Shown here in pieces: positions 2,971 through 19,989 of a DNA stretch of 64,000 nucleotides. Origin of the DNA: Escherichia phage vB_EcoM_DE16; the sequence record OP595145.1, one strand, 5' to 3'. The position numbers were made by a program, and so were the translations under genes. Each line of letters begins with the position of its first letter. Positions within the stretch are counted from its first letter, which is position 1. The notes under the pieces were generated by a model. It searched no databases. It was not told the origin of the DNA and saw only the letters and a list, made by a program, of their open reading frames with translations.

Positions 2971-2973
2971 AGG

Positions 2974-5786: not shown

Positions 5787-5798
5787 AAGGAAAAAGCA

Positions 5799-6272
5799 AT
5801 GGCAGGTTTGAAACTGGAGATGTTGACAAAGCAAGAATTTGTTCCCGAACACGGTGAAACTTACATTGCTTTCTTGATTAGTGATTTTTATGGGGATTTA
5901 GAGTATGTTGAACTGGAGTGTGAGTTTCACTACCAAATGATCGACGCAGAAACTGGTTATTGTCTGGGTACGTCTGCGGTGTATAATGGTGATAATGGCA
6001 TTCCTTTTCATACCCCAATGAGGTACGAAGCGAAAAACCGATTCAAACTTCTCACAGAAGAAGAAAAAGAGACATATAAATATCACGAAGAGGAGGATCA
6101 ACGCTTCTGGTGGGAGAAAACTTGGTTCCTGTCTGATCGCCGTAATCTTCAGATTCACCCAGAAGAACTGGATGAAATGTCCATCGGGATTATGAAGAAG
6201 AAAGACTTCATGTACAAGGTGAGAGAAGCTAATAAGTTCCGTGTTGCAACTAAAGAGGAGAACAAAACATGA
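5799..6272 (+). CDS. hypothetical protein (157 aa)
   Basis: ORF with SD AAAGGAAAAAG upstream. Confidence 0.6.
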   Translation: MAGLKLEMLTKQEFVPEHGETYIAFLISDFYGDLEYVELECEFHYQMIDAETGYCLGTSAVYNGDNGIPFHTPMRYEAKNRFKLLTEEEKETYKYHEEEDQRFWWEKTWFLSDRRNLQIHPEELDEMSIGIMKKKDFMYKVREANKFRVATKEENKT

Positions 6273-6553
6273 AAACATTTATTCGCGTAAAACATGATCC
6301 AAACAGCAGTTACCCATACGCGTATGTTGAACGTCATGAAGGAGACTATTACACCATAAAACGTAAAGTCCCAACTGATACAGGGTTTAACTTTGATGTT
6401 ATTGCGCTGGATGATCAAGGTGTTGATAATCTGGTGAATGCATTACTCGCATTGAAGGAAGTACGACATGAAAATCAGACTAAAGGTAAAGTGGCTTTCG
6501 ATTCTTGTGATCGTTTAGCCGAAGAGATTGCCGAATGGCGTGATACTCACTAA
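6269..6553 (+). CDS. hypothetical protein (94 aa)
   Basis: ORF, ATGA overlap with previous gene, SD AGAGGAG. Confidence 0.6.
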   Translation: MKTFIRVKHDPNSSYPYAYVERHEGDYYTIKRKVPTDTGFNFDVIALDDQGVDNLVNALLALKEVRHENQTKGKVAFDSCDRLAEEIAEWRDTH

Positions 6554-6568
6554 AACAGGAGAAAGATT

Positions 6569-6745
6569 ATGGCTACTTTTCAACAATTGAAAGATGTTTC
6601 ACGTTTAGTAAGAAAAATCCGAGAAGCAGACGCTGCTGTGCGGAATGCATTAACGCCAGCAGAGCGTGAAGATCTTGAAGAGGAGGTGAAAACAGCCGAG
6701 AATGCTTTTGCTGTGTATCTTTCAACACTGTATACAGGAGGTTAA
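6569..6745 (+). CDS. hypothetical protein (58 aa, below ORF-track cutoff)
   Basis: ATG preceded by ACAGGAGAAAG; preferred over antisense track ORF 6573-6779. Confidence 0.45.
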   Translation: MATFQQLKDVSRLVRKIREADAAVRNALTPAEREDLEEEVKTAENAFAVYLSTLYTGG

Positions 6746-7060
6746 ATGTCAGAAGAACTAAAAGAATTTTATCAGGCATATCATAACTGGCTGTTAGCTG
6801 GTGCTCCAGATAATAATCCTTTCTGGCACGATAAAGGATTATGTAGTTGCCTCTACCTTTGGACTGGTGGTTACGATGATCTAAATTATGAAATGCAAAT
6901 GCAATTTCGAGAAGCAGGGTTGTCTGAAGAATACCCGTTTGATGACGGAGACTGGTTTAAATATGATTTTGCACAAAGAAACGGGCTATTGCATTTGAAT
7001 GCTGCCCGTATAAAATGGGTAAAAGACCATGCTACACAGGAGGATGTGCAATGCCAATAG
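6746..7060 (+). CDS. hypothetical protein, member 2 of paralogous family
   Basis: ORF 104 aa sharing FY..W..GAP..PF..GLC..YPF..R.KWVKD motifs. Confidence 0.7.
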   Translation: MSEELKEFYQAYHNWLLAGAPDNNPFWHDKGLCSCLYLWTGGYDDLNYEMQMQFREAGLSEEYPFDDGDWFKYDFAQRNGLLHLNAARIKWVKDHATQEDVQCQ

Positions 7061-7251
7061 TGTTTAGTTTCTTAGTAATTGTTATGGTTGTTCTTTTCGC
7101 GGCATGGCTTTGGGATTTTGACCCAGGAGCAGCGCAGCAAAGAGCTACAGACTGGAAAGAACAGTGTATTGTGCTCAAACATGAACGAAATGCGGAGAAA
7201 TTTCTTGACCTAGAGTGTGATCGCCTTGTAAGATACAAGCAAGATAAATAA
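7051..7251 (+). CDS. small membrane protein (66 aa)
   Basis: ATG at 7051 after CAGGAGG; hydrophobic N-terminal helix IVFSFLVIVMVVLFAAWLW. Confidence 0.55.
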   Translation: MPIVFSFLVIVMVVLFAAWLWDFDPGAAQQRATDWKEQCIVLKHERNAEKFLDLECDRLVRYKQDK

Positions 7252-7265
7252 CTTTGAGGTGCAAA

Positions 7266-7454
7266 ATGGTAATTGAGATTAAACTTGAATATGCTGGGGC
7301 TGTTGCTCTGATCGCACAAATGCTTGGAGCAAAGATTGAAGAAGTGTATATCAATGCCTGGAGCGTAGAGATTGATGTTCCTATGGACAACATTGCTAAT
7401 CGCTTGCTGGTGGCAGAGTGTGAACGCACCAACATAATCTACAAAGGAGCATAA
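7266..7454 (+). CDS. hypothetical protein (62 aa)
   Basis: ATG at 7266 with SD-like TGAGGTG; track start is TTG. Confidence 0.5.
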   Translation: MVIEIKLEYAGAVALIAQMLGAKIEEVYINAWSVEIDVPMDNIANRLLVAECERTNIIYKGA

Positions 7455-7455
7455 T

Positions 7456-7677
7456 ATGAAAATTAGAGTTTGTGATGTATTGGGTTATGTTGGTTTTGAG
7501 AATGTTCAGATTCCTTTTGTTGTTGAAGCACATCTTGTTAGCGATGATATGACAACATTCTTTGTTACGATAGAAGAAATGTCCAAAGTTGAGGGATGGG
7601 AGTGGTTTGAAGAAGATGTTTGGGAAGGTTGTGATTACGTATTTTTCTCTGATGAAGTGAATGTTCTTTCGGAGTAG
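7456..7677 (+). CDS. hypothetical protein (73 aa)
   Basis: ORF with SD AAAGGAG upstream. Confidence 0.55.
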   Translation: MKIRVCDVLGYVGFENVQIPFVVEAHLVSDDMTTFFVTIEEMSKVEGWEWFEEDVWEGCDYVFFSDEVNVLSE

Positions 7678-7679
7678 GT

Positions 7680-7886
7680 ATGTCTTGTTTTACAAAAGCA
7701 GTATCCATATGTAAGAAACAGTATGAAAGTGATTACGGAATATTTAATATTCCAGCGGATCATACGGAGTATTGTTCATGTGGTGGCAGAATGAAGAAAA
7801 CAGTGATTTATGCGGATAATGAAGATGAACTTGTTCCGGTTATGGTTTGCAAAGCTTGTCATTCTGTTAAAACATTAAAAGCGTAA
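7680..7886 (+). CDS. small zinc-ribbon-like protein (68 aa)
   Basis: two Cys pairs (CSCGG ... CKAC) in product. Confidence 0.5.
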   Translation: MSCFTKAVSICKKQYESDYGIFNIPADHTEYCSCGGRMKKTVIYADNEDELVPVMVCKACHSVKTLKA

Positions 7887-7981
7887 GGAGTCGGGACACC
7901 CGACGATTGGAGCTAAAAATTTTGCGTACAACCCTTTCCGCCCAACAGGGGCGCGTCGGGTAAATAAAGAGGAGAGTTTAT

Positions 7982-8380
7982 ATGAAAAAGATCATCGTAG
8001 GTTTATTGTTACTCATTGCATCACTTGGAACAGCAAATGCGTCTCAAGTTTATGAGTGTGTGTCAGATGTGGTTGTTAAAAATCTGAAAGGTGAAGTGAT
8101 TTCTGGTCCTAAGAAAATGGCTTCTGTTGTCATTAATAAAGATAACTCCTTTATCCTTAAAAATTCAGGTGGTGCTTTGATGAGTGGCATTCTGCAATAC
8201 ACAGGAGAAAAAAGTAAAGATGGTAGTGCTATGTATGGTTCACAACAGTTTATTGGCACTACTGAAGTAGTAATGATGCGCACAGAGTATCGAGACACTT
8301 TAGCTTGGTTTGCATTTCTAAAAAATGATAAAACAATAACGAATGTTCTTACTCTAGAAGCTGATTGTACGCAACGATAA
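7982..8380 (+). CDS. secreted or periplasmic protein with signal peptide (132 aa)
   Basis: N-terminus MKKIIVGLLLLIASLGTANA resembles Sec signal peptide; SD AGAGGAG. Confidence 0.6.
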   Translation: MKKIIVGLLLLIASLGTANASQVYECVSDVVVKNLKGEVISGPKKMASVVINKDNSFILKNSGGALMSGILQYTGEKSKDGSAMYGSQQFIGTTEVVMMRTEYRDTLAWFAFLKNDKTITNVLTLEADCTQR

Positions 8381-8390
8381 GGGGGTATTT

Positions 8391-8846
8391 ATGACTAAAG
8401 TGCGACATTATGCTGTAAACTGCAACGATGTTTGGCGTTTGTGTCCTGATGATCCGACAGAAGGCACATTTGTAAGATATGAGGATTATAAAGAGTTATC
8501 GGATGCTGTGATCGCATTGTTAACTGATATCCGTTCACGTTACCCAGGACAAGATTTCACTTGCCCTCACATCAAACTTCTTGCTTGTCTGGTAGAAGGT
8601 GAGAAAGAAGTGGAAGATGGCTTCAAGCGTGTAGAGTATCAAGGTGAAACTTTAGAGGTTCCTGAATTTGTTAATTATATTGCAACAGATTCGAGTGGCG
8701 AGCGTTATGGTTACAGTCATAAACCGGAGATTCCAGATTTCGTTTATGCGTGGCGTATTCCTTATCAAGTTTTTAATGCTGCGGATTACTGGTATTTAGG
8801 AGAAGGAGATAGCCGTAATTGGCGTGACTCCTTGGCTCAGGTTTAA
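8391..8846 (+). CDS. hypothetical protein (151 aa)
   Basis: ORF with SD TAAGGGGG upstream. Confidence 0.6.
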   Translation: MTKVRHYAVNCNDVWRLCPDDPTEGTFVRYEDYKELSDAVIALLTDIRSRYPGQDFTCPHIKLLACLVEGEKEVEDGFKRVEYQGETLEVPEFVNYIATDSSGERYGYSHKPEIPDFVYAWRIPYQVFNAADYWYLGEGDSRNWRDSLAQV

Positions 8847-8850
8847 TACT

Positions 8851-9114
8851 ATGAAAGAAACATTACCAGCAGCATACCGTTTGAATGATGAACGTATTTG
8901 GGAGTGGACCGACGTTTCTTGTTTTTACCCTGAAATAGTTCAATATTGGCGAGCGAAAGGGTGTGTTGTAGTTATCAACCCTTGTGGACCAGTAGATGAA
9001 GATTGTTTGTATCTCAATGGAAAGTGGCACAGTTATTGTCGCTGGCCTTTTGAGTGGATGTGTAAAGAAGATCTCCCAGAGGGTTGGGAGTATCCGAAAG
9101 CAAATAGGAGATAA
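8851..9114 (+). CDS. hypothetical protein (87 aa)
   Basis: ATG at 8851 in frame within track ORF 8824. Confidence 0.45.
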   Translation: MKETLPAAYRLNDERIWEWTDVSCFYPEIVQYWRAKGCVVVINPCGPVDEDCLYLNGKWHSYCRWPFEWMCKEDLPEGWEYPKANRR

Positions 9115-9115
9115 T

Positions 9116-9478
9116 ATGTCTAAAGATTTTGTTGAAGTGTTTGTCAAAGACGAAGAAACTGGTTTAGGCACAGGTTTCATTTGCGAAGAAACTTTTAAGC
9201 GTGAACAAGAAAAAGCTATTCTTATGCACCGCTATGATCATGCATTAGAACAATGGAAAAATGCAGAACAAAAATGCAAAAACCTTTACGCAGAAAATAG
9301 AAAACTACAAGATCAAATGGAGTTGTTAGCTATCAGTTTACGATCTCTCATTTTGGCTGTAGAAGATGGTTTTAAAAATCCAGATGGTTTTCCTGTGAGC
9401 GATATTGAACATGATTTGTATCTTGCTCGTGGTGCTTACTTTTATGTTAAACAGAAGCCTGTAGAAGGAGAGAAATGA
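9116..9478 (+). CDS. hypothetical coiled-coil protein (120 aa)
   Basis: ATG at 9116 after AATAGGAG; track ORF 8996 start lacks SD. Confidence 0.55.
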   Translation: MSKDFVEVFVKDEETGLGTGFICEETFKREQEKAILMHRYDHALEQWKNAEQKCKNLYAENRKLQDQMELLAISLRSLILAVEDGFKNPDGFPVSDIEHDLYLARGAYFYVKQKPVEGEK

Positions 9479-9675
9479 TGGAAGAAAAACTGGAACGTAT
9501 TATCGAGTTAGCCATGTCTATTGGCTACGACGATTGTTTTCTCCAAACTATTGGAGAAACACAGGACGATTACGACTCTTGGGTGAAAGAGTTGGAAGAA
9601 CTCAAAACTTCCTTGATTGCTGACTTTGCTGAAGCAGAGGATAAAGCAGATCGTTACAACTATCTGTGTCGATAA
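9475..9675 (+). CDS. hypothetical acidic protein (66 aa)
   Basis: ORF with SD GAAGGAG, overlap with previous stop. Confidence 0.55.
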   Translation: MMEEKLERIIELAMSIGYDDCFLQTIGETQDDYDSWVKELEELKTSLIADFAEAEDKADRYNYLCR

Positions 9676-9678
9676 GCC

Positions 9679-9707
9679 TTGACATTTATTTTATGTATGG
9701 TATACAT
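9679..9707 (+). promoter_or_regulatory. sigma70-like promoter (TTGACA, ~16-17 nt, TATACA)
   Basis: perfect -35 hexamer in intergenic gap before 9738 gene. Confidence 0.5.
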
Positions 9708-9737
9708 ACATTATCAACGTGAGCAAGGTGGTGTAAT

Positions 9738-10010
9738 ATGAATAAAGATCGGTTTCTTTCTTTAGTCGCGGAAGCGCCTTTTGATGTTCTTGGGGTGAGA
9801 TTATGGAAAGACAGAAACTATGGGTTAGATGTTCAAACATATTCTCTTTGGTTGGTTGGGGAGCACAGCTTAGATGAAAGCTTGTGCATGGGTAGGGATT
9901 CTCGTTCCCTTTGTTTAAAGTTTAGAAGCTTAGAACGCGCAAACAAAGAGCAAGAAAAACTAACGAGGTGGCTAAATGAAAACAAGCGCAGGGTTGATGG
10001 AGTTTTATAA
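9738..10010 (+). CDS. hypothetical protein (90 aa)
   Basis: ORF with SD AAGGTGG upstream. Confidence 0.55.
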   Translation: MNKDRFLSLVAEAPFDVLGVRLWKDRNYGLDVQTYSLWLVGEHSLDESLCMGRDSRSLCLKFRSLERANKEQEKLTRWLNENKRRVDGVL

Positions 10011-10302
10011 AATTTATCTAGCATGGATTGATGTTGGTGCTCCTGATGGTAAACCTTTTCGGCGAGATTGCGGTTTGTGTGCCAACTTGTTCGATTATGT
10101 GCACGCAGATGGCTACAATCTCCTTATAACAACCTTGTCAGACGAAATGCACTCACAGTTTTACTACAAAGGGTTGAGTCAAGAACTCCCTTTCAATGAG
10201 AACTACGATGCATATGTCTTAGAATCAGATGCAGAGGTATGTCACCTGAACGTGGACAGGATTAATTGGGTAAGAGATCGTATTGCAGAGGAGGATGAAT
10301 AA
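9976..10302 (+). CDS. hypothetical protein, member 3 of paralogous family
   Basis: 108 aa ORF with family motifs (EFYKIYLAWIDVGAP ... GLC ... LPF ... RINWVRDR). Confidence 0.7.
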   Translation: MKTSAGLMEFYKIYLAWIDVGAPDGKPFRRDCGLCANLFDYVHADGYNLLITTLSDEMHSQFYYKGLSQELPFNENYDAYVLESDAEVCHLNVDRINWVRDRIAEEDE

Positions 10303-10529
10303 TGTCGGATTATAACTGGTATGAACTTGAGGCCGTTTGTCAGTTTTACGACTCAATAGTTCTGCGTGATCCAATCTGTCAAGAATTAAGTCGCCGTGCA
10401 AGTGCATTGGCAATTAATGTTAAAGTGCACGATTGGAACGCAGATCTGGAAAAAGAATTGGAATTCCTTTTGGAAACAACCCGTGTCTTCCATAAAGTGT
10501 TCCCTGAATGGTTTGAGATGGAGGAATAA
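10302..10529 (+). CDS. hypothetical protein (75 aa)
   Basis: ORF with SD GAGGAGG upstream. Confidence 0.55.
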   Translation: MSDYNWYELEAVCQFYDSIVLRDPICQELSRRASALAINVKVHDWNADLEKELEFLLETTRVFHKVFPEWFEMEE

Positions 10530-10531
10530 GC

Positions 10532-10744
10532 ATGTGGATTGTCCGTCTTAAGTATGATGGCAAGTTTCCGTGGGAGAAAGATGTTTGTGCCTGTGATTCA
10601 GCAGCACATGCCAAAGCAGCGGGTCAGGCAGTAGTTGACATGTATAACAACACCCCCTTTGATCCAGAAATGGCAGGTGTTACAATGAGCATGTTCACTT
10701 ACTATTCTTTTGAGGTTTACTATCACGAAGGAGAGTGGAAATGA
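10532..10744 (+). CDS. hypothetical protein (70 aa)
   Basis: ORF with SD GATGGAGG upstream. Confidence 0.55.
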   Translation: MWIVRLKYDGKFPWEKDVCACDSAAHAKAAGQAVVDMYNNTPFDPEMAGVTMSMFTYYSFEVYYHEGEWK

Positions 10745-11061
10745 GCGAAGAACTATTAACATTTTACCGCACGTATTTGGCATGGTTGGAAGCTGGTGCT
10801 CCTGAAGGTGAACCGTTCACCCGTTGCACAGGTTTGTGCACGAACCTCTATGATTTTTACGACATAGGAGAAAGCGAACGATACGAACCTGTACTGGATG
10901 AAATGCATGAGCAGTTCTACCTCAAAGGTTTGGTTATGGTGTTGCCTTTCAACAGTAATTTTGGAAAGTACACCTTAGAAGCGGAAAAAAGCCGTTGTCA
11001 TTTGAATGTGGATCGTGTGAACTGGGTAAAAGAACGTGTAGCAGAAGAAATAATTGGTTGA
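10741..11061 (+). CDS. hypothetical protein, member 4 of paralogous family
   Basis: ATG at 10741; product closely resembles 9976 gene product. Confidence 0.7.
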   Translation: MSEELLTFYRTYLAWLEAGAPEGEPFTRCTGLCTNLYDFYDIGESERYEPVLDEMHEQFYLKGLVMVLPFNSNFGKYTLEAEKSRCHLNVDRVNWVKERVAEEIIG

Positions 11062-11115
11062 CAGAAGGATCTGTCTTTGTCATAATCATCTCATCGAAAC
11101 AGAGAGGAGAAAATC

Positions 11116-11529
11116 ATGAAAAAGTTTATTTGCACCCGTTCCACTAACAGTGATATCCTTGTAGGTAAAGTTATCAAAGGAGAACTCTTCCATGCAAACG
11201 GTAAGAAATATATTCTGCTGAAAGATTCTTTCAACGGGGAATATCCGCGCTGCACTTTCTTCAATTACAATACTCCATTTGCTTTAGAAGGAGATGCTTG
11301 GGAATGGGCTGAACTCAATCCTTGTTGTGAGGAAGAAGAATCTATGTTCTTAGGTTTAAACGTTTACCGTGTAGATTACACCATGTGCGGAGCGGAACAT
11401 TCTGTTCGCGTAGAAGCCGAATCCAAACTACAAGCACCTTTCAAGGCGGGATTGACTTTGGGTCATTGTTTGGCAAACATTGAAGATGTTGTGATCCAAA
11501 GAGTTGTTTTAGAGAAAGAGGCTATTTGA
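11116..11529 (+). CDS. hypothetical protein (137 aa)
   Basis: ORF with SD AGAGGAG upstream. Confidence 0.6.
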   Translation: MKKFICTRSTNSDILVGKVIKGELFHANGKKYILLKDSFNGEYPRCTFFNYNTPFALEGDAWEWAELNPCCEEEESMFLGLNVYRVDYTMCGAEHSVRVEAESKLQAPFKAGLTLGHCLANIEDVVIQRVVLEKEAI

Positions 11530-11581
11530 CAGAAGACGGCACAATATTTAAATATAAAGATTAACCACAAAGGAGATAGAT

Positions 11582-11881
11582 ATGCAAGTTGAAGACCTGA
11601 TCAAAATTTTGAATGAAGCCAAAGAGAAAGGTGCTATCAAGGACTGGAAACGTGAAACAAGTGAAGACCTATCTCACTGTTGCCGAGAATTTTACATCGA
11701 AGGTATTGCTAACGATCATTATACTATTGAATGGTATATTAACTTAATGACTCTTAAGCACGGTTCATTTGAGGTTTGGTTTGATGACATTGATGTAAAT
11801 GGTTTTCATCCTGGCTATAAAATCGCTATGCAGCTATCTTATCGTAGAGAAGTTGTAGCACATTTGGGTTTACATAACTAA
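11582..11881 (+). CDS. hypothetical protein (99 aa)
   Basis: ORF with SD AAAGGAG upstream. Confidence 0.6.
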   Translation: MQVEDLIKILNEAKEKGAIKDWKRETSEDLSHCCREFYIEGIANDHYTIEWYINLMTLKHGSFEVWFDDIDVNGFHPGYKIAMQLSYRREVVAHLGLHN

Positions 11882-11891
11882 GGAGAAAAGA

Positions 11892-12215
11892 ATGCAAGCA
11901 GTTGTTAACGAAGCTATTATGAACTTATCCTTCTTGTTAGCTGGTTTAGGAGGTGTTCTCATAGGTTTGGCTCTTATCTGGTGTATTCGTCGATTAATCG
12001 GGTACCGACAAAAAGGTGTTTCATGTTTTGTATCTTACAATTTTACAACTGCTTACAGCAATGAGGTTGGATCTGGCAATGCTCAAGCATTTTTACCAAC
12101 ATATCCTCCTACGGTGGAAGATATTCGAAACTTGGAAGTAGAACTTATGGGACTAAGTGATAACTATACATCTCTAGTTATTCAAAATATTTTTCGACTA
12201 AAACAGGAGGCGTGA
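11892..12215 (+). CDS. membrane protein (107 aa)
   Basis: hydrophobic segment LSFLLAGLGGVLIGLALIWCI; SD TAAGGAG. Confidence 0.55.
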   Translation: MQAVVNEAIMNLSFLLAGLGGVLIGLALIWCIRRLIGYRQKGVSCFVSYNFTTAYSNEVGSGNAQAFLPTYPPTVEDIRNLEVELMGLSDNYTSLVIQNIFRLKQEA

Positions 12216-12428
12216 ATGAAGGTACATTACCCTCATCCCTTTGATCCTAAAAACAAAGCCGTAATTCTTCGTCAGTGGGAACGGGTTTGTCGTACTAAAT
12301 GTCCAATCAATAGCCCACACAATGTAGACAAGGACTATCTTGGGACATTTGTTGAATACACTTACATAGACAAAAACAAGCGTAAACAACATGTCGAGGA
12401 ATACTGCTTAAGAGTAGAATGGCTGTAA
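12216..12428 (+). CDS. hypothetical protein (70 aa)
   Basis: ORF with SD CAGGAGG upstream. Confidence 0.55.
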   Translation: MKVHYPHPFDPKNKAVILRQWERVCRTKCPINSPHNVDKDYLGTFVEYTYIDKNKRKQHVEEYCLRVEWL

Positions 12429-12440
12429 ATAATAAATACC

Positions 12441-12469
12441 TTGACAAGTGTTTATTCGTTTTGTAAAGT
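12441..12469 (+). promoter_or_regulatory. sigma70-like promoter (TTGACA, 17 nt, TAAAGT)
   Basis: intergenic, upstream of recombinase gene. Confidence 0.5.
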
Positions 12470-12498
12470 GAGAATACAGCAATGGTTTAGGAGTGGTT

Positions 12499-13170
12499 AT
12501 GAAAAAGTTTGTTGTTTACAGTCGTCTTTCTAAACAGAAAAAAGGTGAGGCACAATATGGTATGGAGAGCCAAGAGAACGATATCCGTTACTTCTTAGAC
12601 TCTGTGCCTGATGCGGAAGTTATTGGTCAATTTTCTGAATACTATTCGGGTAAGGGCGATTGGAAGCAACGTAAAGAACTGGTTAAAGCGGTTGAAATGT
12701 GTAAAGCTACCGGAGCAACTTTATTGGTAGCTAAAGTTGACCGCTTAGGTCGTAACAACGCCTCCGTAGCAACTCTTCTGGAGATGATCGATGTTAAGAT
12801 AGCCATCATGCCAGACGCAGATAAAATGGTTATACAGCTTCTATCTGTTCTGGCTGAACAAGAAGTTAGAGGTATTGCTGATCGTATTAAAAAGGGTCTT
12901 GCTGTAGCAAAAAGTAAAGGTGTTTTATTAGGTAGTGCTAATCCTAAAACTGCCGCTGCACGTAGAAAAGGAAAAATGGAATACAACTCTGTTAAAGCAG
13001 ATGCTTTTGCAGAGACATTCCGTGAACGCTTGGAGATCCTTAGAGATTTAAATACACCTTACAAAACTATTGCTGAAAAATTCAATAGTAAGAAAATAGC
13101 AACAGCACGTGGTGGTAAATGGGATGCTAAAACTGTTTCTCGTTTGTGTGCCAGACTTAACATTAAATAG
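12499..13170 (+). CDS. serine recombinase (resolvase/invertase family)
   Basis: N-terminal YSRLS catalytic-serine context, VAKVDRLGRN motif, C-terminal HTH-like tail; 223 aa. Confidence 0.7.
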   Translation: MKKFVVYSRLSKQKKGEAQYGMESQENDIRYFLDSVPDAEVIGQFSEYYSGKGDWKQRKELVKAVEMCKATGATLLVAKVDRLGRNNASVATLLEMIDVKIAIMPDADKMVIQLLSVLAEQEVRGIADRIKKGLAVAKSKGVLLGSANPKTAAARRKGKMEYNSVKADAFAETFRERLEILRDLNTPYKTIAEKFNSKKIATARGGKWDAKTVSRLCARLNIK

Positions 13171-13178
13171 GAGAGGAT

Positions 13179-13601
13179 ATGAAACAAGAAAATGAATCTG
13201 TAGATCACTTAATCATGCTGTCAGCCCTTTTTGCCGGATGGGACGTATTTTTTGAAAATTTGTTCAATTCTGCTACAGATGGTTCCGATTTTATGCGGCA
13301 GTTTAAACGACGAACTGTTGAGGACTATGCTTTCTATTCAGGTCGGATTGAAAAAGGTTACGAAGATACAAATACAACACTCACCATTAAAGTTTTAGAT
13401 GTGATGTTTAGTGTTATAGATGCTATCGACGAAAGTCTTCCGATCCTAGACAATTGTAATACGAAAGCCTATGTTTACAAAATAGCTCGTGCTTATGTGT
13501 CTGCAAACAGTTGTCTTCTTTCCACCCAGATTGCCGTGAACAATCTTGCCAACTTGTTTGATGAAGGAGAAACTTTTTATGACAATCGATTTGAAGTGTA
13601 A
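13179..13601 (+). CDS. hypothetical protein (140 aa)
   Basis: ORF with SD TAGGAGAGG upstream. Confidence 0.6.
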   Translation: MKQENESVDHLIMLSALFAGWDVFFENLFNSATDGSDFMRQFKRRTVEDYAFYSGRIEKGYEDTNTTLTIKVLDVMFSVIDAIDESLPILDNCNTKAYVYKIARAYVSANSCLLSTQIAVNNLANLFDEGETFYDNRFEV

Positions 13602-13944
13602 GAGGATTCTTTTAGATTTCTATAATAATTGGTTAGAACACCTCCGTCTCTTTCCAAGAGAAAGTGGTTACGCTGATGTTGGCTTATGCCGAGGTCTACG
13701 TATGTATATAAGTGATGAATTTCGGGCCGAGCATTCTTTAGCATATGCTGTTTATGGTATGCAATTAGCCAGTTTTGAAAACGCTGGCTTAGATACAACT
13801 TTCCCATTTAACACAGCAAAATCTTTTGAGCAAGAGTGTAAGGAAAAACGTTGCATGTTTAATGAAAAACGTGTACAGTGGGTTAAGGATCGAGTTAAAC
13901 AACTGGAACAAGAGTTGGATTTCTTCTATGATGAGGCAGAATAA
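13579..13944 (+). CDS. hypothetical protein, member 5 of paralogous family
   Basis: ATG 13579 after GAAGGAG; motifs DFYNNWLEH ... GLC ... FPF ... RVQWVKDR. Confidence 0.65.
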   Translation: MTIDLKCKRILLDFYNNWLEHLRLFPRESGYADVGLCRGLRMYISDEFRAEHSLAYAVYGMQLASFENAGLDTTFPFNTAKSFEQECKEKRCMFNEKRVQWVKDRVKQLEQELDFFYDEAE

Positions 13945-14216
13945 TGGATAGACAAACCTTAAAAACAATGGCAGATGCCACTAATTCCCCGTACTTTGAA
14001 AAAGTAAGTAAATTGGTAGCTCAAGCCGCAGAGGAAGGATATTATAACATAAACATCCACAACCCAAGTCTTATACTAGAAATGCCAAGTGATAAGAAGA
14101 TACAAGAAAGTATCTGTGAAGGTATTGTTAGTTACTGGCGCGAGCGTGGGTGTGGTGCAAACATGGCTTTAGACAGTGCAAACATTGTAAGATATATAAA
14201 TATTTCTTGGGGGTGA
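13944..14216 (+). CDS. hypothetical protein (90 aa)
   Basis: ORF, start overlaps previous stop. Confidence 0.55.
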   Translation: MDRQTLKTMADATNSPYFEKVSKLVAQAAEEGYYNINIHNPSLILEMPSDKKIQESICEGIVSYWRERGCGANMALDSANIVRYINISWG

Positions 14217-14220
14217 TTTT

Positions 14221-14505
14221 ATGATTCAATGCACTCATATCCAAATTACTTGGAGAGATGAACTTTACCATTTGGGACAATTTACTGTAGGGGAAACATA
14301 CCCTATCATTAAACATAATCCTAACATCGCAAACTTTGACAGGATGGTTCTTGTTGAGGACGATCTAGGTCAAACTTATTCTTTAGATCTAAAATATCCG
14401 TTTTCTTACGGCTACGATTGGATCGTTACTTTTGAAGACGTGGAGGAAAATAAAACAATGAACGAAAAAATTCTTGGTATTATCGTTGTGAACTGCCGCC
14501 AGTAG
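14221..14505 (+). CDS. hypothetical protein (94 aa)
   Basis: ORF with SD GGGGGTG upstream. Confidence 0.55.
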   Translation: MIQCTHIQITWRDELYHLGQFTVGETYPIIKHNPNIANFDRMVLVEDDLGQTYSLDLKYPFSYGYDWIVTFEDVEENKTMNEKILGIIVVNCRQ

Positions 14506-14531
14506 GTGAAAAGGTTATCTTTGTTCCTGAT

Positions 14532-14831
14532 TTGGAAAGATATTCTTGGGACAGTTCTTATTCTGTTCCTAAAGAAGGCACCGAAGTTGAAGTTATTGCA
14601 CATCGCACAACTTCGCATGGTAACGACGTAGCAGTTGTTTTCTGGGATGATGAAGGTGCTGCTTGTGCAGGTGGCTTTGTTGCAGGTAATTTTGAACCCC
14701 TGCCAGATCCTTTGAAGGAGGCAATTTTAGGCGTAGCTTCTTTTGGACTCTCTTACACATCTGCACAAGAGATCGTAGAAGGTATTTTAAACGGTACCGT
14801 TCCAAACGAAATTTTTAAACAGATTAAATAA
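14532..14831 (+). CDS. hypothetical protein (99 aa), start uncertain (TTG only)
   Basis: frame open from 14454 with no ATG; possible frameshift with 14221-14505. Confidence 0.35.
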   Translation: MERYSWDSSYSVPKEGTEVEVIAHRTTSHGNDVAVVFWDDEGAACAGGFVAGNFEPLPDPLKEAILGVASFGLSYTSAQEIVEGILNGTVPNEIFKQIK

Positions 14832-14836
14832 TAGTT

Positions 14837-14864
14837 GCACCCCGTTCTGCGGGGTGTTATTGTA
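14837..14864 (+). terminator. Rho-independent terminator (CACCCCG-TTCTG-CGGGGTG + T-rich)
   Basis: perfect 7-bp GC stem then TTATTGT. Confidence 0.65.
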
Positions 14865-14882
14865 TATGTAAAGGAGGCGCTA

Positions 14883-15221
14883 ATGTATTACACTGAAGAC
14901 TACATATTGTATAACTTTTTTAAAGGCTGGTTGAAATGGGCGGAACAAGCTCCTGTCGGAGATTGTGTTTTTCCTTGGGATTCTCGTCAAGGCTTGTGTC
15001 GTTGTTTGGAAGATTGGCTTATAACCACAAACTACAATTCAGAAACTAAGAAATCTACATCAAACAGATTAAAAATGTTATTTGAAGAAGATGGTTTAGA
15101 TCCAATTTATCCTTTCGGTGAGGAAAGTTTCCACAATGGTCTTTTCCTTGGCACTCAACATTATGATAAAGATCGTGTAGATTGGGTAAAAGAAAAGGTA
15201 GCACAGTATGAATGGGGTTAA
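14883..15221 (+). CDS. hypothetical protein, member 6 of paralogous family
   Basis: ATG 14883 after AAAGGAGG; motifs NFFKGWLKW ... GLC ... YPF ... RVDWVKEK. Confidence 0.65.
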   Translation: MYYTEDYILYNFFKGWLKWAEQAPVGDCVFPWDSRQGLCRCLEDWLITTNYNSETKKSTSNRLKMLFEEDGLDPIYPFGEESFHNGLFLGTQHYDKDRVDWVKEKVAQYEWG

Positions 15222-15411
15222 GAATTATCACCGCTGGTTAGAAAGCTATCTTAAGAAATGTGAACTTGGTGTTCCAGGTTATACTTACGACACGGACGAG
15301 ATTCTTGATGAAATGGAAGTTTGGTTTAAAGAGCCTCGTGAACTATTGGCAAATATTCTAATGGCTTGGGATGGTACGGCACAAAGCATCGGAGGAGGTA
15401 AAAATGAGTAA
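15208..15411 (+). CDS. hypothetical protein (67 aa)
   Basis: ORF overlapping previous gene end; no clear SD. Confidence 0.4.
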   Translation: MNGVKNYHRWLESYLKKCELGVPGYTYDTDEILDEMEVWFKEPRELLANILMAWDGTAQSIGGGKNE

Positions 15412-15555
15412 GAAATTGTTTAATATTCGTGAGAATCGTGATGGATCGTTCTCTGTAGTCAATGAGTTTAACGTTTCGGTTGGGACTTTTATTACTAAAC
15501 GTCAAGCAGAACAAGTAAGAGATACTTTAAACAAGTAAGTTTTTAAGGGGGACTT

Positions 15556-15975
15556 ATGTTAGGTAAGATCAAAGCTTTTTTCAAACGTATTGTTGAAGGA
15601 AGTCCAACAGAAGGTGCATTAGGAAGATCTCTAACAGGAGAACCACTTGCCATAATTTCTATCAGTCGGCATGGTGGATATTCCATTCGACAAACACCTT
15701 TAGGTATAGAAGGTAGTATGCTTTCTTGGACAATATCTCAAGTTGGTGATAACAGACTTGCAGCTATAGCGTTACTTCGTGGGGAGTATGACTATTGTTT
15801 ATCAGCATCTTGTAAAAAGCACCTCATAGAGCACATTAGAGACAGAGTAGAAAGAGAAGGCGGATACTTCTTCGAAACTAAGAGAAACGAACAAGGAACT
15901 CTTGACTTCACTAAGGTTTACTGGGACAATCATACTCGTCAAACTGTTGAACAACTTCTGGAGGAAAGATGTTAA
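15556..15975 (+). CDS. hypothetical protein (139 aa)
   Basis: ORF with SD TAAGGGGG upstream. Confidence 0.6.
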   Translation: MLGKIKAFFKRIVEGSPTEGALGRSLTGEPLAIISISRHGGYSIRQTPLGIEGSMLSWTISQVGDNRLAAIALLRGEYDYCLSASCKKHLIEHIRDRVEREGGYFFETKRNEQGTLDFTKVYWDNHTRQTVEQLLEERC

Positions 15976-16178
15976 AAGCTTTTGCTGTATACTCTACTGT
16001 AGGATTCTTTTATTGGATTATAGTTATTGTCGGATGTTGGTTAGGTTCTTGTGTTGTGATGGGAGAATGGTTAACATACAATGTATTTGAATGGGATGTA
16101 GTTTGTAGATCATTACTTGTTATATGGACTGCTATTGTTTGTTGGATAACTGTTAGTCTAACATTAGATCTATATTGA
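15969..16178 (+). CDS. small membrane protein (69 aa)
   Basis: two hydrophobic segments; SD CTGGAGG. Confidence 0.5.
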   Translation: MLKAFAVYSTVGFFYWIIVIVGCWLGSCVVMGEWLTYNVFEWDVVCRSLLVIWTAIVCWITVSLTLDLY

Positions 16179-16471
16179 TTAATAGATGGTAGATAGATGA
16201 TCATAGTTTATCTACCTTCACTTACGTTTCATACCTCACTATCGTGAGTAACATGAAACATTATTATATAGAAATCTACTACTCGCTATCGCTCGTAAAC
16301 ATATGTTTAGGGTACCATATTTTTTTGAAAAAGTCAATGCTGACTCACCTATCAATTATCTGTTTAAGATAAGTCTTACCTATCAATCTAACTCTTAACT
16401 AGTATTGCACCTATAGTAAGACTATTCCTATAGTTATTAACCCTCTTCTTCTGTAGAATGTAATTAGATCC

Positions 16472-16500
16472 TTGACAAACTCACAAAACTTGTGTTACAT
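16472..16500 (+). promoter_or_regulatory. sigma70-like promoter (TTGACA, 17 nt, TTACAT)
   Basis: in 360-bp intergenic gap before 16539 gene. Confidence 0.45.
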
Positions 16501-16538
16501 TGTGTCTCACAGGTGAATAATACCGAACAGGAGGAAAA

Positions 16539-16754
16539 ATGAGTTCCAATTTTCTATACAAAGCAAAAGATTCACGAGATGGAGAGAACCATTGGTGGTT
16601 GATCACAGAAGATGGTGTTATCATCCTACCGTGGGACGGAGAGACGAAAGTTCAAATATTAGAGAAAGTAAAAGGTGTTAGTTTTAATGTTAGTCATGAC
16701 ATAACAACTTTCAAAGCTTTTGCTATGAATCCTAGTCTTGTTGCTGAATGGTAA
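16539..16754 (+). CDS. hypothetical protein (71 aa)
   Basis: ORF with SD ACAGGAGG upstream. Confidence 0.55.
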   Translation: MSSNFLYKAKDSRDGENHWWLITEDGVIILPWDGETKVQILEKVKGVSFNVSHDITTFKAFAMNPSLVAEW

Positions 16755-16767
16755 TCCAGGAGAAAAT

Positions 16768-16986
16768 ATGACTAAAATGTATGCAGCCGTTGATAAGCTG
16801 GATGGGTCTGATTCTGTTTTTATTTTGAATAAAATGGGTGTCTTAGTTTATGCCCGAACTTCTCAAAACATAGAACACCAAGTGGAAGCAGCACAAATTT
16901 TAGAACAAATAACCCCTCCATACCTATACTCAAATGTTGAGCGTTTTAACGATGCACTTGGTTTGACGTTAATAGCGGAATGGTGA
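16768..16986 (+). CDS. hypothetical protein (72 aa)
   Basis: ATG 16768 after CCAGGAG. Confidence 0.55.
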   Translation: MTKMYAAVDKLDGSDSVFILNKMGVLVYARTSQNIEHQVEAAQILEQITPPYLYSNVERFNDALGLTLIAEW

Positions 16987-17177
16987 AAATGTTGGAAATT
17001 GATAATGTCGTAGCAATCACTACGTCCATACCTTGTCCTCCTATGCCTTGCCCCTATTGTGGTGGTGCAGGATATGTTATGGCGGATGTAGGTCAAATTT
17101 ACGAGTGTAACCCGTGCAAAACCACAGGCTATATCCAAATAGAATCAGAGGAGAAACACTATGAGCCAAAACGCTAA
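16980..17177 (+). CDS. small Cys-rich protein (65 aa)
   Basis: CPYCGG ... CNPCK motifs (zinc-ribbon-like). Confidence 0.5.
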   Translation: MVKMLEIDNVVAITTSIPCPPMPCPYCGGAGYVMADVGQIYECNPCKTTGYIQIESEEKHYEPKR

Positions 17178-17610
17178 AGAAAAAGAAGTAATCACGGTAA
17201 TCCGTCAGATGGAAGGTGCCGAAAACAATGCTTTTGTTACTAAGATTCTTCTTAATATCTTTGAAGATGTTATTTTAAACAATCCTGGTCATAAAGATTA
17301 TCAGTATGATGTTATGATGGGTGCTTTGCTTGAGATTAACAAAAACACTTTTGCTGAATATGAGCAACACATGCTTTTACCAGAGGAAGATCAGGATTAT
17401 TTGTTATCTGGTGCTTTAAGTGCACAAGAAAATTTCTACCACGTTCTTAATATGGCTTATGCAGATGAACTTGCTGTTTCCCTTGAAGAGCGTATTCAAA
17501 TGGTTCGTGATGTGATGAATGAACAAATCCAAGAAGTTGAAGACTTGGTAGCAGAACCTTTAGCAGAAATTCGTGCAGCTATTGAAAAACAAAAAGGAAC
17601 TCAATCATGA
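17161..17610 (+). CDS. hypothetical protein (149 aa)
   Basis: ORF with SD GAGGAG upstream. Confidence 0.6.
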   Translation: MSQNAKEKEVITVIRQMEGAENNAFVTKILLNIFEDVILNNPGHKDYQYDVMMGALLEINKNTFAEYEQHMLLPEEDQDYLLSGALSAQENFYHVLNMAYADELAVSLEERIQMVRDVMNEQIQEVEDLVAEPLAEIRAAIEKQKGTQS

Positions 17611-17774
17611 TGCAAGTAGGTGATGTGGTTTGCCTTAAAGGTGCAAACAAACAAATGACAGTAATAGAAAGTTATGGTGAATCTTGTAAAGTAACTTGGT
17701 TCGATGAAAACGGGGAATTGCAACACGCCATATTCGATCAAAAAGCTTTGAGGAAGGTTGAAGAAAAAGAATGA
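17607..17774 (+). CDS. small protein (55 aa, below ORF-track cutoff), DUF2158-like guess
   Basis: ATGATG start overlapping previous stop; product MMQVGDVVCLKGANKQMTV... Confidence 0.4.
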   Translation: MMQVGDVVCLKGANKQMTVIESYGESCKVTWFDENGELQHAIFDQKALRKVEEKE

Positions 17775-18034
17775 GCCATCCGTCAATATTTTTCTGTTTT
17801 GTAGATCTTGAAAACGAGTCTTTAATCGTTGATAGTGAGGGTTACTTCACTTATTGGGAATCCGAGCACGAAACTATAAGTGTAGTGAAAGAAATTATGC
17901 AAACCAATCCAAGCCTACCAGCACATAAGTACGGTATTGCAAAAGTGTTTGTTACTAAAACAGAGTACACAAAAGAGCGAAGCACTTTGTACCATAATAT
18001 TGAAGTGATTCACTATTTCAAAGATGTTATTTAG
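17771..18034 (+). CDS. hypothetical protein (87 aa)
   Basis: ORF, ATGA overlap with previous gene. Confidence 0.55.
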   Translation: MSHPSIFFCFVDLENESLIVDSEGYFTYWESEHETISVVKEIMQTNPSLPAHKYGIAKVFVTKTEYTKERSTLYHNIEVIHYFKDVI

Positions 18035-18042
18035 GAGGTTAT

Positions 18043-18651
18043 ATGGAAGAGAAGATTTGGGATGGTAAAGATCCTTTAGAAGTTGGACATGTAGCGCGTG
18101 TCAAAAAATCTACTACAGGTCCTGGTTTTTCTGGTTTGTATCATATACCAGAAGAAGGTCAGCACGTTACAATTTTGGCTCGTGACAAACAAAACGGAGC
18201 AACGCCTGTGTGGATTGTTCGTTGGTATGACAAAGATCTTAACATTTGCTTGTCACCTATTATGGCTCATTTGCTGGAAGCCCCTTGCTCTGAAGAAGCT
18301 CTTATTTTTGTTTCGGCTTTTCAGAAAGCCACAGGTTTAACATTAGATGTAAAAGATGTGCAAAAAGCACTTGACATTATTGAGGAAGACAACGATACTA
18401 CATCTAACGACGAACTGGTTGAAGTTACAATATTATCTTCAGCAGATATCCGAGAGATTGAGAATTGTGATTTTCCAATCACATTTAAAATGTCGCAGAA
18501 AGACGTGCAGTCATCTGGAAGTTGTTTTGGCATACCTCGTTGGTTTTTTGATTCTATCAAAAATTCTACTACAGAGGGATCAGACTATGATCAAGATGAC
18601 ATGCTTTGGTTCTTAAAAAACCGAGAGATTGTTCTCTCACCACTTAAGTAA
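18043..18651 (+). CDS. hypothetical protein (202 aa)
   Basis: ORF with SD TTAGGAGG upstream. Confidence 0.6.
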   Translation: MEEKIWDGKDPLEVGHVARVKKSTTGPGFSGLYHIPEEGQHVTILARDKQNGATPVWIVRWYDKDLNICLSPIMAHLLEAPCSEEALIFVSAFQKATGLTLDVKDVQKALDIIEEDNDTTSNDELVEVTILSSADIREIENCDFPITFKMSQKDVQSSGSCFGIPRWFFDSIKNSTTEGSDYDQDDMLWFLKNREIVLSPLK

Positions 18652-18660
18652 GGAGAAATA

Positions 18661-18762
18661 ATGGTTTCATTTATCGTAGGTGTAGTTGTAGGCTATCTTA
18701 TTAACAAATATCAAGACGTTATCACGGCAAAAGTAAAAGACATTTTAGACTCATCTAAATAA
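18661..18762 (+). CDS. small hydrophobic peptide (33 aa)
   Basis: strong SD TAAGGAG 6 nt before ATG; product MVSFIVGVVVGYLIN... Confidence 0.4.
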   Translation: MVSFIVGVVVGYLINKYQDVITAKVKDILDSSK

Positions 18763-18769
18763 TCTATCA

Positions 18770-18800
18770 AAGCTGCATCTTCAATAGGTGCAGCCTTTTA
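18770..18800 (+). terminator. terminator-like hairpin (GCTGCA ... TGCAGC + CTTTT)
   Basis: 6-bp stem with 11-nt loop followed by T run. Confidence 0.45.
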
Positions 18801-18814
18801 AAAGGAGATATGGC

Positions 18815-18988
18815 ATGACTAAACGCACTGATTTTAAATGTATGCATTGTGGGAAATCTTTTGGGGATCATCAAGCTCGCACATTCAACTGTCCACGTAA
18901 AGGTCGCGGAAATTTTAAAGGTTTTAATCCCGCACATGTTTATTCTCCAGATTACGATAAGCCAGAAGAAGAAAAATTTGTTATTTAA
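18815..18988 (+). CDS. small zinc-binding-like protein (57 aa)
   Basis: ATG after AAAGGAG; CMHCGK ... NCPRKG motifs. Confidence 0.5.
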   Translation: MTKRTDFKCMHCGKSFGDHQARTFNCPRKGRGNFKGFNPAHVYSPDYDKPEEEKFVI

Positions 18989-19000
18989 TAAGGAGGTCAT

Positions 19001-19282
19001 ATGGAACTCGTTCAAGAATTGTATAATGCTTTAGGAGCAAAAGGAAAAGATTGGCCCGAACATGCGCTTATTGCTATAAGAGACTCCGATGGTGAGATTA
19101 AGTTTTCAAGCGTAAGTAAAGAGCACATCGTAGAAACAAAACTGGGTATTTACATGCGTGGAACTTATTGCTTATTCAACACCAGAATGGTAGAAGCCCC
19201 TGTTATCGAGGATGGAACAAAAGGTTGCCCCACAATCGTAACAAAATCTGAATATGAGAAGTTTTTCTACGCTAAGGCTTGA
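19001..19282 (+). CDS. hypothetical protein (93 aa)
   Basis: ORF with SD TAAGGAGG upstream. Confidence 0.6.
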   Translation: MELVQELYNALGAKGKDWPEHALIAIRDSDGEIKFSSVSKEHIVETKLGIYMRGTYCLFNTRMVEAPVIEDGTKGCPTIVTKSEYEKFFYAKA

Positions 19283-19314
19283 CACAGAAACAATACTATA
19301 GGATAGTGATCCTA
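19279..19314 (+). promoter_or_regulatory. sigma70-like promoter (TTGACA, 17 nt, GATAGT) overlapping inverted repeat ATAGGAT-AGTG-ATCCTAT
   Basis: perfect -35; palindrome spans the -10 region (operator-like). Confidence 0.45.
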
Positions 19315-19326
19315 TCGTAGCAATAG

Positions 19327-19349
19327 AACCCGCTTCGGCGGGTTTTTTC
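19327..19349 (+). terminator. Rho-independent terminator (ACCCGC-TTCG-GCGGGT-TTTTT)
   Basis: UUCG tetraloop hairpin plus T run. Confidence 0.7.
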
Positions 19350-19373
19350 ATATCTGTAGCAATAGGAGGTCGT

Positions 19374-19604
19374 GTGTTAAATAAAATCGAAGAAGGTTGT
19401 ATGGCATTTTTGGTAGATAACCCGTTTCCCTTTATGGTTAAGGTCCATGTAGGAGAGTATTTAGGTTATGACGAATGGGATTGTAGTATCAATAGTGAAA
19501 TGCACCACTACCAACCAACAATACTTAAGACGGATCAAATGGCGCGTATTACAGTAGAGGATGAATTGATCATTGAGTTATACGAGAGAGCACTACACAA
19601 GTAA
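19374..19604 (+). CDS. hypothetical protein (76 aa, GTG start)
   Basis: GTG preceded by AATAGGAGG; last plus-strand gene before strand switch. Confidence 0.5.
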   Translation: MLNKIEEGCMAFLVDNPFPFMVKVHVGEYLGYDEWDCSINSEMHHYQPTILKTDQMARITVEDELIIELYERALHK

Positions 19605-19673
19605 GCTAGAACCCACCTAAATCGAACAGAGACGCTCTAAAATAGAAAAGGCATCCACTTGGGTGCCTTTGTT

Positions 19674-19946: not shown

Positions 19947-19963
19947 TTTATTCTCCTAATAAG

Positions 19964-19984
19964 AAAGGGGCCGAAGCCCCTTGA
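19964..19984 (-). terminator. intercistronic hairpin GGGGCUUCGGCCCC (UUCG tetraloop)
   Basis: same hairpin recurs at 32064-32081 and 38233-38248, each just upstream of an SD. Confidence 0.55.
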
Positions 19985-19989
19985 GTGGT

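Follow-up and report, generated by a model that had tools for sequence, protein, structure and literature searches.

The recombinase gene and its surroundings

The window analysed here is the whole 64,000-nucleotide stretch of Escherichia phage vB_EcoM_DE16 (record OP595145.1), and the subject is a serine recombinase gene within it that runs on the plus strand from an ATG at 12499 to a TAG at 13170 (223 residues plus stop). The gene is preserved in essentially the whole subfamily of the phage and has changed its locus between genera. Its product is very probably an active site-specific recombinase, and we tentatively favour a role on a single site in replicating phage DNA.

Sixty-four phage records match the 3 kb around the gene at 95–99% identity. 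Nearly all of these are Phapecoctavirus (phAPEC8, ESCO13, UP17), and the window is phAPEC8/ESCO13-like Phapecoctavirus DNA, of the subfamily Stephanstirmvirinae; the Phapecoctavirus relatives are virulent myoviruses of 145–155 kb. The recombinase gene belongs to an array in which about 55 small unknown genes run rightward (window ~2.1–19.6 kb) and which begins beside a 1.5-kb non-coding region and ends against a convergent block of DNA-metabolism genes. The non-coding region is homologous to the part of the Justusliebigvirus phage BME3 in which the 342-bp direct terminal repeat (DTR) of that phage lies (PMC12210895). The terminal region near the array is probably the first to enter the cell, and promoter type and position suggest that the recombinase is expressed early. 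The setting described in an earlier note on this DNA, an early gene of an apparently lytic phage, is borne out by this small-gene array of a Phapecoctavirus, and its remark that neither an attachment site nor an integrase-type context is visible also holds. There is no transposase gene near the recombinase gene. Public records label the gene variously as ‘DNA invertase’, ‘resolvase’, ‘recombinase’, ‘serine recombinase’ or ‘hypothetical’.

A ribosome-binding site, AGGAG, can be read at 12489–12493 on the plus strand, 5 nt before the ATG. An alternative GTG start at 12493 overlaps this motif, and ATG 12499 is therefore the preferred start. Further upstream lies a putative sigma-70-type promoter, TTGACA-17 nt-TAAAGT (12441–12469, plus strand; 10/12 match). 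The region holds no excess of such matches over shuffled sequence (65 versus 60.3 ± 8 expected), so that this match alone proves nothing; however, both the −35 and the −10 hexamer are kept in ESCO13 and phiWec181 despite diverged flanking bases, which upholds the proposal that the gene has a TTGACA promoter of its own. The Justusliebigvirus orthologues also have their own promoter, TTGAC(T/A)-17-CATACT.

An imperfect 26-bp palindrome, AATAAATACCTTGACAAGTGTTTATT (12431–12456, no strand assigned), overlaps the −35 element and is unique in the window. It is probably neither an operator nor a recombinase site, as its right half is not kept in ESCO13, the protein of which is 100% identical; dyads of this quality occur by chance about 0.9 times per kb.

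In ESCO13 the four genes directly upstream of the recombinase are swapped for a phiWec181-like set (ESCO13 10610–12533 versus window 11334–12498). Homology between the two phages breaks exactly at the recombinase start codon and identity is high from there on. The variant early region of ESCO13 holds a perfect 100-bp tandem duplication (ESCO13 11414–11612). Among ten metagenomic contigs the array is heavily mosaic upstream of ~11045, and 11045–20330 forms a conserved block.

Architecture of the protein

Both motifs quoted in the earlier note are present, YSRLS at residues 7–11 and VAKVDRLGRN at residues 77–86. Residues 5–142 match the Pfam Resolvase family (PF00239; E = 5e-18) and score 66 bits, where the cut-off is 23.3. 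In an alignment of 27 homologues, which reaches down to 31% identity, Y7, R9, S11, G21, Q25, R58, D81, R82 and R85 are invariant and E120, E122 and R129 nearly so. The resolvase/invertase catalytic domain is confirmed, with its catalytic Ser and Arg residues aligned and intact; judged from this alignment, S11 is the nucleophile and the full catalytic constellation of the serine recombinases is present. The spacing of the N-terminal motifs, S11…G21…Q25 (S-x13-Q), reads in the alignment as the longer spacing typical of large serine recombinases (LSRs).

An AlphaFold2 model calculated with the homologue alignment (mean pLDDT 88) has a mixed alpha/beta catalytic core, a long E-helix (residues 109–139) and a tail of four helices (residues 149–172, 175–183, 188–197 and 210–219). 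The catalytic domain with the E-helix (residues 1–145; 12499–12933, plus strand) is delimited by PF00239, the alignment, and Foldseek and hidden Markov model matches. The predicted C-terminal helical DNA-binding tail (residues 149–223; 12943–13167, plus strand) resembles the first helix-turn-helix of the LSR ‘recombinase domain’. The likeness is weak: residues 187–216 match positions 19–48 of the 102 positions of PF07508 (Recombinase) with 18.2 bits, below the cut-off of 21.1, and the protein has no match to HTH_7 (PF02796) at E ≤ 1. The helices of the model and this likeness indicate that the ‘HTH-like tail’ of the earlier note is real.

Foldseek searches with the model retrieve the catalytic domains of Sin, gamma-delta, TP901-1 and IS607-type enzymes, and the longest alignments are to Bxb1 and SPbeta-type integrases. 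When a profile of the family is compared with the PDB, the catalytic part matches Gin (best), Tn3 and gamma-delta, and the SPbeta integrase 9dxh is the only chain that aligns to the tail by sequence. The best PHROGs match is phrog_125 (‘DNA invertase’), followed more weakly by phrog_95 (‘integrase’). All NCBIfam equivalogs score far below their cut-offs (YneB 32 versus 175, XisF 27 versus 375, CcrB 17.5 versus 900). The Mpi master invertase model NF009949 shows a weak full-length resemblance (22.6 bits versus a cut-off of 272), and the PADLOC defence and anti-defence libraries give no match for the recombinase. The weak PF07508 tail, the missing HTH_7 and the sub-cut-off equivalogs point to a short serine recombinase that is LSR-like and comes from a family that has not been curated; as aligned and modelled, the protein is a short relative of the LSRs, its catalytic domain being followed by no more than the opening helix-turn-helix of the recombinase domain. 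The family comprises 2,542 clusters at 50% identity (E ≤ 1e-10); of the best 150, nearly all are 210–250 residues long and match end to end.

On these sequence grounds we are highly confident that the enzyme is an active site-specific recombinase. A DNA-binding regulator that no longer recombines is highly improbable: the promoter does overlap the weak palindrome at 12431–12456, and autoregulation is common among resolvases such as those of Tn3 and gamma-delta, but a pure repressor would not maintain a catalytic constellation that is invariant across the whole family.

Conservation and selection

About 60 Phapecoctavirus genomes in GenBank encode exactly this protein (100% identity). By tblastn it is found at ≥99% identity in 62 records, at 60–90% identity in nine divergent Phapecoctavirus-like phages and at 52–58% identity in Justusliebigvirus and Klebsiella relatives. 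The codons of the gene differ from those of UP17 by 10 synonymous and from those of ESCO13 by 19 synonymous changes, with no non-synonymous change in either comparison, and the recombinase is under strong purifying selection. About 131 records are recombinase-positive, against 132 Stephanstirmvirinae records with a major capsid protein of ≥80% identity, a comparison of two counts in which the genomes were not joined one by one. The recombinase is present in essentially every Stephanstirmvirinae genome and is a core gene of the subfamily.

Between genera the recombinase is 57% identical, which lies within the range of the neighbouring proteins (32–87%) and therefore fits vertical descent. The early array evolves fast, and in Tr1, FBKp34 and Justusliebigvirus the recombinase alone, of all the genes of its neighbourhood, can still be recognised. 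The identical 223-residue protein occurs in 884 blocks of public assemblies, and the contigs with the exact protein that were read are free phage genomes of 65–153 kb. One contig with the exact protein is 0.2–1 Mb in size; it may be a mis-assembled concatemer or a case of more interest.

Relatives on plasmids, viruses and chromosomes

Full-length homologues of 35–40% identity are carried by 124 plasmids, 104 of which are non-mobilizable. Some of the carriers are replicons of 5.8–6.5 kb, the other genes of which encode RepA and ParA (Marinovum pMaD11) or a primase-helicase (Klebsiella). On such small plasmids multimer resolution is the usual job of a recombinase. Two Klebsiella plasmids (L103, at 4323–4356, and L104) have a dyad of 16+2+16 nt located 33 bp upstream of the start codon; the arms are conserved between the two plasmids, which differ at the central dinucleotide (AA versus TT). 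The dyad looks as a simple site would and is a candidate crossover site for the family.

At least 481 viral loci hold a homologue. In 80 of these no recurrent neighbour was found, be it a recombination directionality factor, an accessory gene or a partner gene, and some of the temperate viral relatives carry a separate tyrosine integrase as well. Inverted repeats of 17–24 nt abut the gene in three distant relatives (L072, L082, L084); a significant inverted repeat within 5 kb is seen in only 14 of the 80. The bacterial loci with a homologue number at least 581. In about 19 of the 80 retrieved, a ParB-methylase gene and a P27-type small-terminase gene lie just upstream in prophage-like DNA, a pair that is not present in the window. 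In four alphaproteobacterial, prophage-like loci (L178, L186, L169, L182) the recombinase stands between two diverged (~40% identical) P27-type small-terminase genes.

The literature search found no functional study, only annotations and one guess, ‘resolvase for concatemers’, for an orthologue (PMC10282059); nor did it find a characterised member of the short LSR-like family. Another paper says that ESCO5 has no recombinase (PMC10269720), but ESCO5 does encode it.

Movement between loci

In Justusliebigvirus (ESCO9, FKP3) the recombinase gene sits inside the DNA-metabolism block and in the same orientation as the block. The two small genes that flank it there have homologues that are adjacent in the window, and the counterpart of the Justusliebigvirus recombinase position is an ‘empty site’ between them, a 45-nt intergenic spacer with a terminator-like hairpin (28590–28634, minus strand). 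All 15 ESCO9 neighbours with a homologue in the window are collinear to window 32584–25084; the ESCO9 recombinase alone maps elsewhere, to window 12505–13167 on the other strand. In FBKp34 the gene is found in a third, different small-gene context, so that in Phapecoctavirus, Justusliebigvirus and FBKp34 it is a lone gene with its own promoter at different loci. No att-like repeats were found at the junctions of the filled and empty sites between genera. A 30%-identical homologue is present in some isolates only of Vibrio phage ICP1, within a swapped cassette.

The comparison of these loci indicates that the recombinase has moved as a single-gene cassette between genera, and the differing loci suit a function that needs no adjacent invertible segment. 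The earlier note had considered a remnant mobile element. Mobility between genera stands, but ‘remnant’ is wrong in view of the strong purifying selection and the near-universal presence in the subfamily.

A further step would be to regard the recombinase and its promoter as a self-interested cassette that is of hardly any use to the phage, if of any. Like a free-standing homing-endonuclease gene, it would persist and move among intergenic sites in phage and plasmid DNA, through recombination that it catalyses itself or through illegitimate events. The relocation of a single gene between genera, its precise intergenic placement and its own promoter favour such a cassette, as do the homology break with ESCO13 exactly at the start codon, the patchy occurrence in ICP1, the lack of a conserved neighbour in the 80 viral loci and the sheer size of a promiscuous family with so many clusters and so many viral and bacterial loci. 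We nevertheless think it rather unlikely, since the gene is near-universal in the subfamily, unlike patchy homing genes, its divergence fits vertical descent, it shows zero non-synonymous change, and there are neither flanking repeats nor att-like junctions.

Search for a DNA substrate

No invertible segment, res-like array or att site was found. Inverted repeats in the window are at chance level only. The best pair in the window, at 12026 and 14162 (74% match), brackets the gene, but ESCO13 does not have the cassette that contains its left arm, and the pair is therefore attributed to chance. Self-BLAST of the complete ESCO13 genome yields only three inverted pairs of ≥20 nt, all of them terminator or ribosome-binding sequences. 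The regions upstream of the orthologues in ESCO13, phiWec181, Tr1, ESCO9 and FKP3 have no dyad in common, and only the promoter hexamers are conserved. Non-coding DNA conserved between genera was also considered and consists of terminators, terminal-region elements and the piece at 16275–16337, none of which has the even-spaced dyad symmetry of a serine recombinase site.

A tail-fibre switching cassette was rejected: the tail-fibre genes are all on one strand, the next gene on the opposite strand is SSB-like and lies on the replication strand, and no alternative tail-fibre cassette is present. Around the gene, 62 genomes are collinear across 3 kb and ten independent contigs, from metagenomes or isolates, across 20 kb; about 60 genomes are collinear across window 20–64 kb. 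The suggestion of the earlier note that the enzyme inverts a switchable segment is not supported, given the complete ESCO13 genome without an inverted pair of ≥20 nt apart from terminators and ribosome-binding sequences, the missing fibre cassette and the collinearity of about 60 genomes and 10 contigs in the tested regions. A DNA invertase that flips a phage segment, as a promoter or host-range switch, is what the usual database label implies, and it finds some support in phrog_125 as the best PHROG, in the family profile, whose top sequence match in the PDB is Gin, in the repeats beside the gene in L072, L082 and L084 and in the weak full-length likeness to Mpi. It is very unlikely here, given the ESCO13 inverted pairs, the loss of the 12026/14162 arm in that phage, the absence of HTH_7, the unidirectional tail-fibre region, the collinear gene order and the small share of viral relatives with a significant inverted repeat nearby.

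The gene with its flanks has no blastn match in 5,426 complete Escherichia coli genomes, plasmids included. This result bears on the possibility that the phage is less than strictly lytic and uses the gene as an integrase or for plasmid-prophage maintenance, a reading prompted by the homology to large serine integrases (phrog_95; the Bxb1 and SPbeta folds), by relatives in prophage-derived contigs and beside small-terminase genes, and by the single contig of 0.2–1 Mb. The reading is largely refuted, and we rate its probability as minimal: beyond the missing prophage, the protein is without the zinc-ribbon and coiled-coil domains that LSRs use for att-site choice, some temperate relatives have a separate tyrosine integrase, and the contigs with the exact protein that were read are free phage genomes.

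The target could also lie outside the phage genome. The enzyme would then be a trans-acting weapon or a takeover factor, with the host chromosome, a resident prophage or plasmid, or the att site of a PLE-like satellite as the DNA that it cuts, excises or scrambles; the place of the gene in an early array, beside the terminal region that probably enters the cell first, and the lack of any target found in the phage genome agree with this. The relatives Inny and Muut carry Odn-like anti-satellite nucleases, and E. coli has 224 putative satellites, some with serine recombinases (PMC10055350), so that a satellite arms race in this phage group makes such a role thinkable; in the ICP1–PLE conflict there is a precedent for a serine recombinase turned into a nuclease (PMC9638900). 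Yet the protein is 100% conserved in about 60 genomes, unlike fast-evolving arms-race genes, it has no PADLOC match, its orthologues occur in phages of E. coli, Klebsiella, Vibrio and Shewanella, which leaves no obvious common target, and there is no direct evidence for a weapon, which we consider unlikely. In its most specific form the proposal is distinctly doubtful: the enzyme would be injected early for use in conflict, would leave the phage genome alone and would recognise a site in host, prophage or satellite DNA, such as the att site of PLE-like satellites that parasitise this group of phages, and break or rearrange that DNA. If true, it would be the first serine recombinase wielded as a weapon by a virulent phage.

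Proposed function of the recombinase

The reading that we prefer is a recombinase of the resolvase or Cre-lox type, acting on one site in replicating phage DNA and being neither an invertase nor an integrase. We put it forward tentatively, at clearly less than an even chance. It is favoured by elimination and by analogy with the plasmid-borne relatives. An enzyme with one site per replicon would fit the position independence of the gene, the lack of an inverted-repeat pair or orientation variant and the kinship with recombinases of tiny plasmids. A dimer would bind a short dyad-symmetric site, of which each phage genome has one. Synapsis of two sites, located on separate genome copies or repeated directly along one multimer or concatemer, would be followed by strand exchange between them with S11 as the nucleophile. 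Monomeric and multimeric (or linear and circular) replicating forms would in this way be interconverted early in infection. Phage DNA as the substrate, the single site per genome and the direction of the reaction are inferred.

Several points weigh against this reading. The upstream spacer, the flanks of the orthologues and the conserved non-coding DNA contain no recombination site that could be found, and the spacer upstream of the gene, at 70 nt, is too short for an array of res-type subsites. We know of no phage with short direct terminal repeats that needs a site-specific recombinase. The subfamily appears to package its genomes with such repeats (BME3; PMC12210895). The plasmid analogy relies on homology at 35–40% identity only. 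The sister group, Vequintavirus, does without the recombinase. Finally, the orthologue of phage Schickermooser (5001–5650) has seven deletions of 1–7 nt in its first 230 nt, the rest being ~99% identical; this copy is either a real pseudogene or a sequencing artefact, and it means that the gene may be dispensable in the laboratory. The resolution of replication concatemers, one of the functions offered in the earlier note, is therefore favoured by elimination and by the plasmid analogy, but its cognate site has not been found in the phage.

Other features of the window

The gene-free region at window 600–2100 is homologous to the terminal-repeat-bearing region of BME3 and ESCO9. It contains an element of ~120 bp (1121–1244) that is ~80% conserved between genera and holds a unique, perfect 19-bp palindrome, GCTTGCAATAATTGCAAGC, at 1222–1240. 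In BME3 one copy of this element stops exactly at the annotated DTR boundary, for which reason the element is probably a packaging or terminus signal. Three copies of a AATGATAAYCATTMTCAT-like sequence (809–826, 1565–1582 and 1744–1761) all lie in the terminal non-coding region; they closely resemble the E. coli Fur-box consensus.

Within the tightly packed early array there is a gene-free gap of ~360 bp (16180–16540). A 60-bp piece of it (16275–16337) is 78% conserved in ESCO9 and is followed by a TTGACA promoter-like site at 16472. An Rfam scan of window 1–20000 gave no match. An identical 22-nt terminator hairpin, AACCCGCTTCGGCGGGTTTTTT, occurs at 19327–19348 and at 24062–24083 in opposite orientations, at both ends of a Sir2-methylase block, and is kept in ESCO9. 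On the minus strand, 24592–24867 encodes a 91-residue protein with an Acb2/Tad1 hairpin domain (PF24729, 60.9 bits), a probable anti-CBASS/Thoeris sponge.

Implications

Dozens of public records already list this gene under the same label. What is new here is the short LSR-like architecture, the purifying selection, the near-universal presence in the Stephanstirmvirinae and the differing loci of a single-gene cassette. An enzyme that is universally kept without a visible substrate is mildly puzzling, although it will not surprise a specialist, and the matter is not resolvable from sequence alone. That the recombinase is intact throughout a strictly virulent subfamily implies an unrecognised step of the lytic cycle, or a conflict between phage and host or phage and satellite.

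Phages of this group are under development for therapy, and recombinase genes are routinely taken as a warning of lysogeny. Since the 5,426 E. coli genomes searched contain no prophage copy and integrase-type domains are missing from the protein, the recombinase is here no sign of integration. For safety arguments in phage therapy it is useful to know that it is not a lysogeny marker in this case. The short LSR-like family of ~220 residues extends over thousands of sequence clusters on phages, plasmids and chromosomes, and if its sites are simple, such compact enzymes could interest genome engineering.

Comparison with known systems

The closest entries are the GenBank orthologues phAPEC8_0049, ESCO13 gp035 (‘resolvase’) and that of UP17 (‘serine recombinase’), which are the same gene, 100% identical in about 60 Phapecoctavirus records. 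Phi92_gp052 of the phi92-like Justusliebigvirus has the same annotation and is ~57% identical. With its PF00239 score, the Y-x-R-x-S and D-R-x-x-R motifs and the E-helix, the window protein belongs to the serine recombinase superfamily. Recombinase family proteins of small plasmids (Marinovum pMaD11, Klebsiella, Paracoccus, Hymenobacter) have the same length and the same two-domain architecture at 35–40% identity; however, the Klebsiella plasmid relatives have long non-coding DNA with a clear dyad directly upstream, and the phage gene is without such a dyad.

The Tn3/gamma-delta resolvases and Sin share with the window protein the catalytic fold, the catalytic residues and the size class, and the reaction proposed here is the same as theirs. 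Unlike the Tn3/gamma-delta enzymes, the window protein has no HTH_7 match and no transposase partner, and its S-x13-Q spacing is longer; in place of an upstream res with three subsites there is only the 70-nt spacer with one non-conserved palindrome. The invertases Hin, Gin, Cin and Pin have the catalytic domain in common with it, Gin being the best PDB sequence match, and the window gene is, as some of these, phage-borne. In contrast to Hin and Gin, it is not accompanied by inverted crossover sites (~26 bp), an invertible segment or alternative fibre genes, and the C-terminal domain is different. The Mpi-type master invertase (NF009949) is matched below its cut-off, and the IS607 transposases have the reverse domain order (MerR-like helix-turn-helix first), with no match of the window protein to an IS607 model.

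The LSRs (the Bxb1, SPbeta SprA/YokA, TP901-1 and phiC31 integrases) share the N-terminal motif spacing with the window protein and give the longest structural alignments, and its LN..G..T.RG..W motif matches the start of their recombinase domain. Whereas LSRs are 450–700 residues long, the window protein has 223 and lacks both zinc ribbon and coiled coil as well as the remainder of the recombinase domain; unlike the LSR integrases it has no att site, no prophage form in the complete E. coli genomes searched and no lysogeny. Cre-lox of phage P1 is a functional analogue only: a phage recombinase with one site per genome that cyclises and resolves replicating DNA, which is the job proposed here. 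Cre differs in being an unrelated tyrosine recombinase with a known site, loxP, where none was found for the present enzyme, and it belongs to a temperate, plasmid-forming phage.

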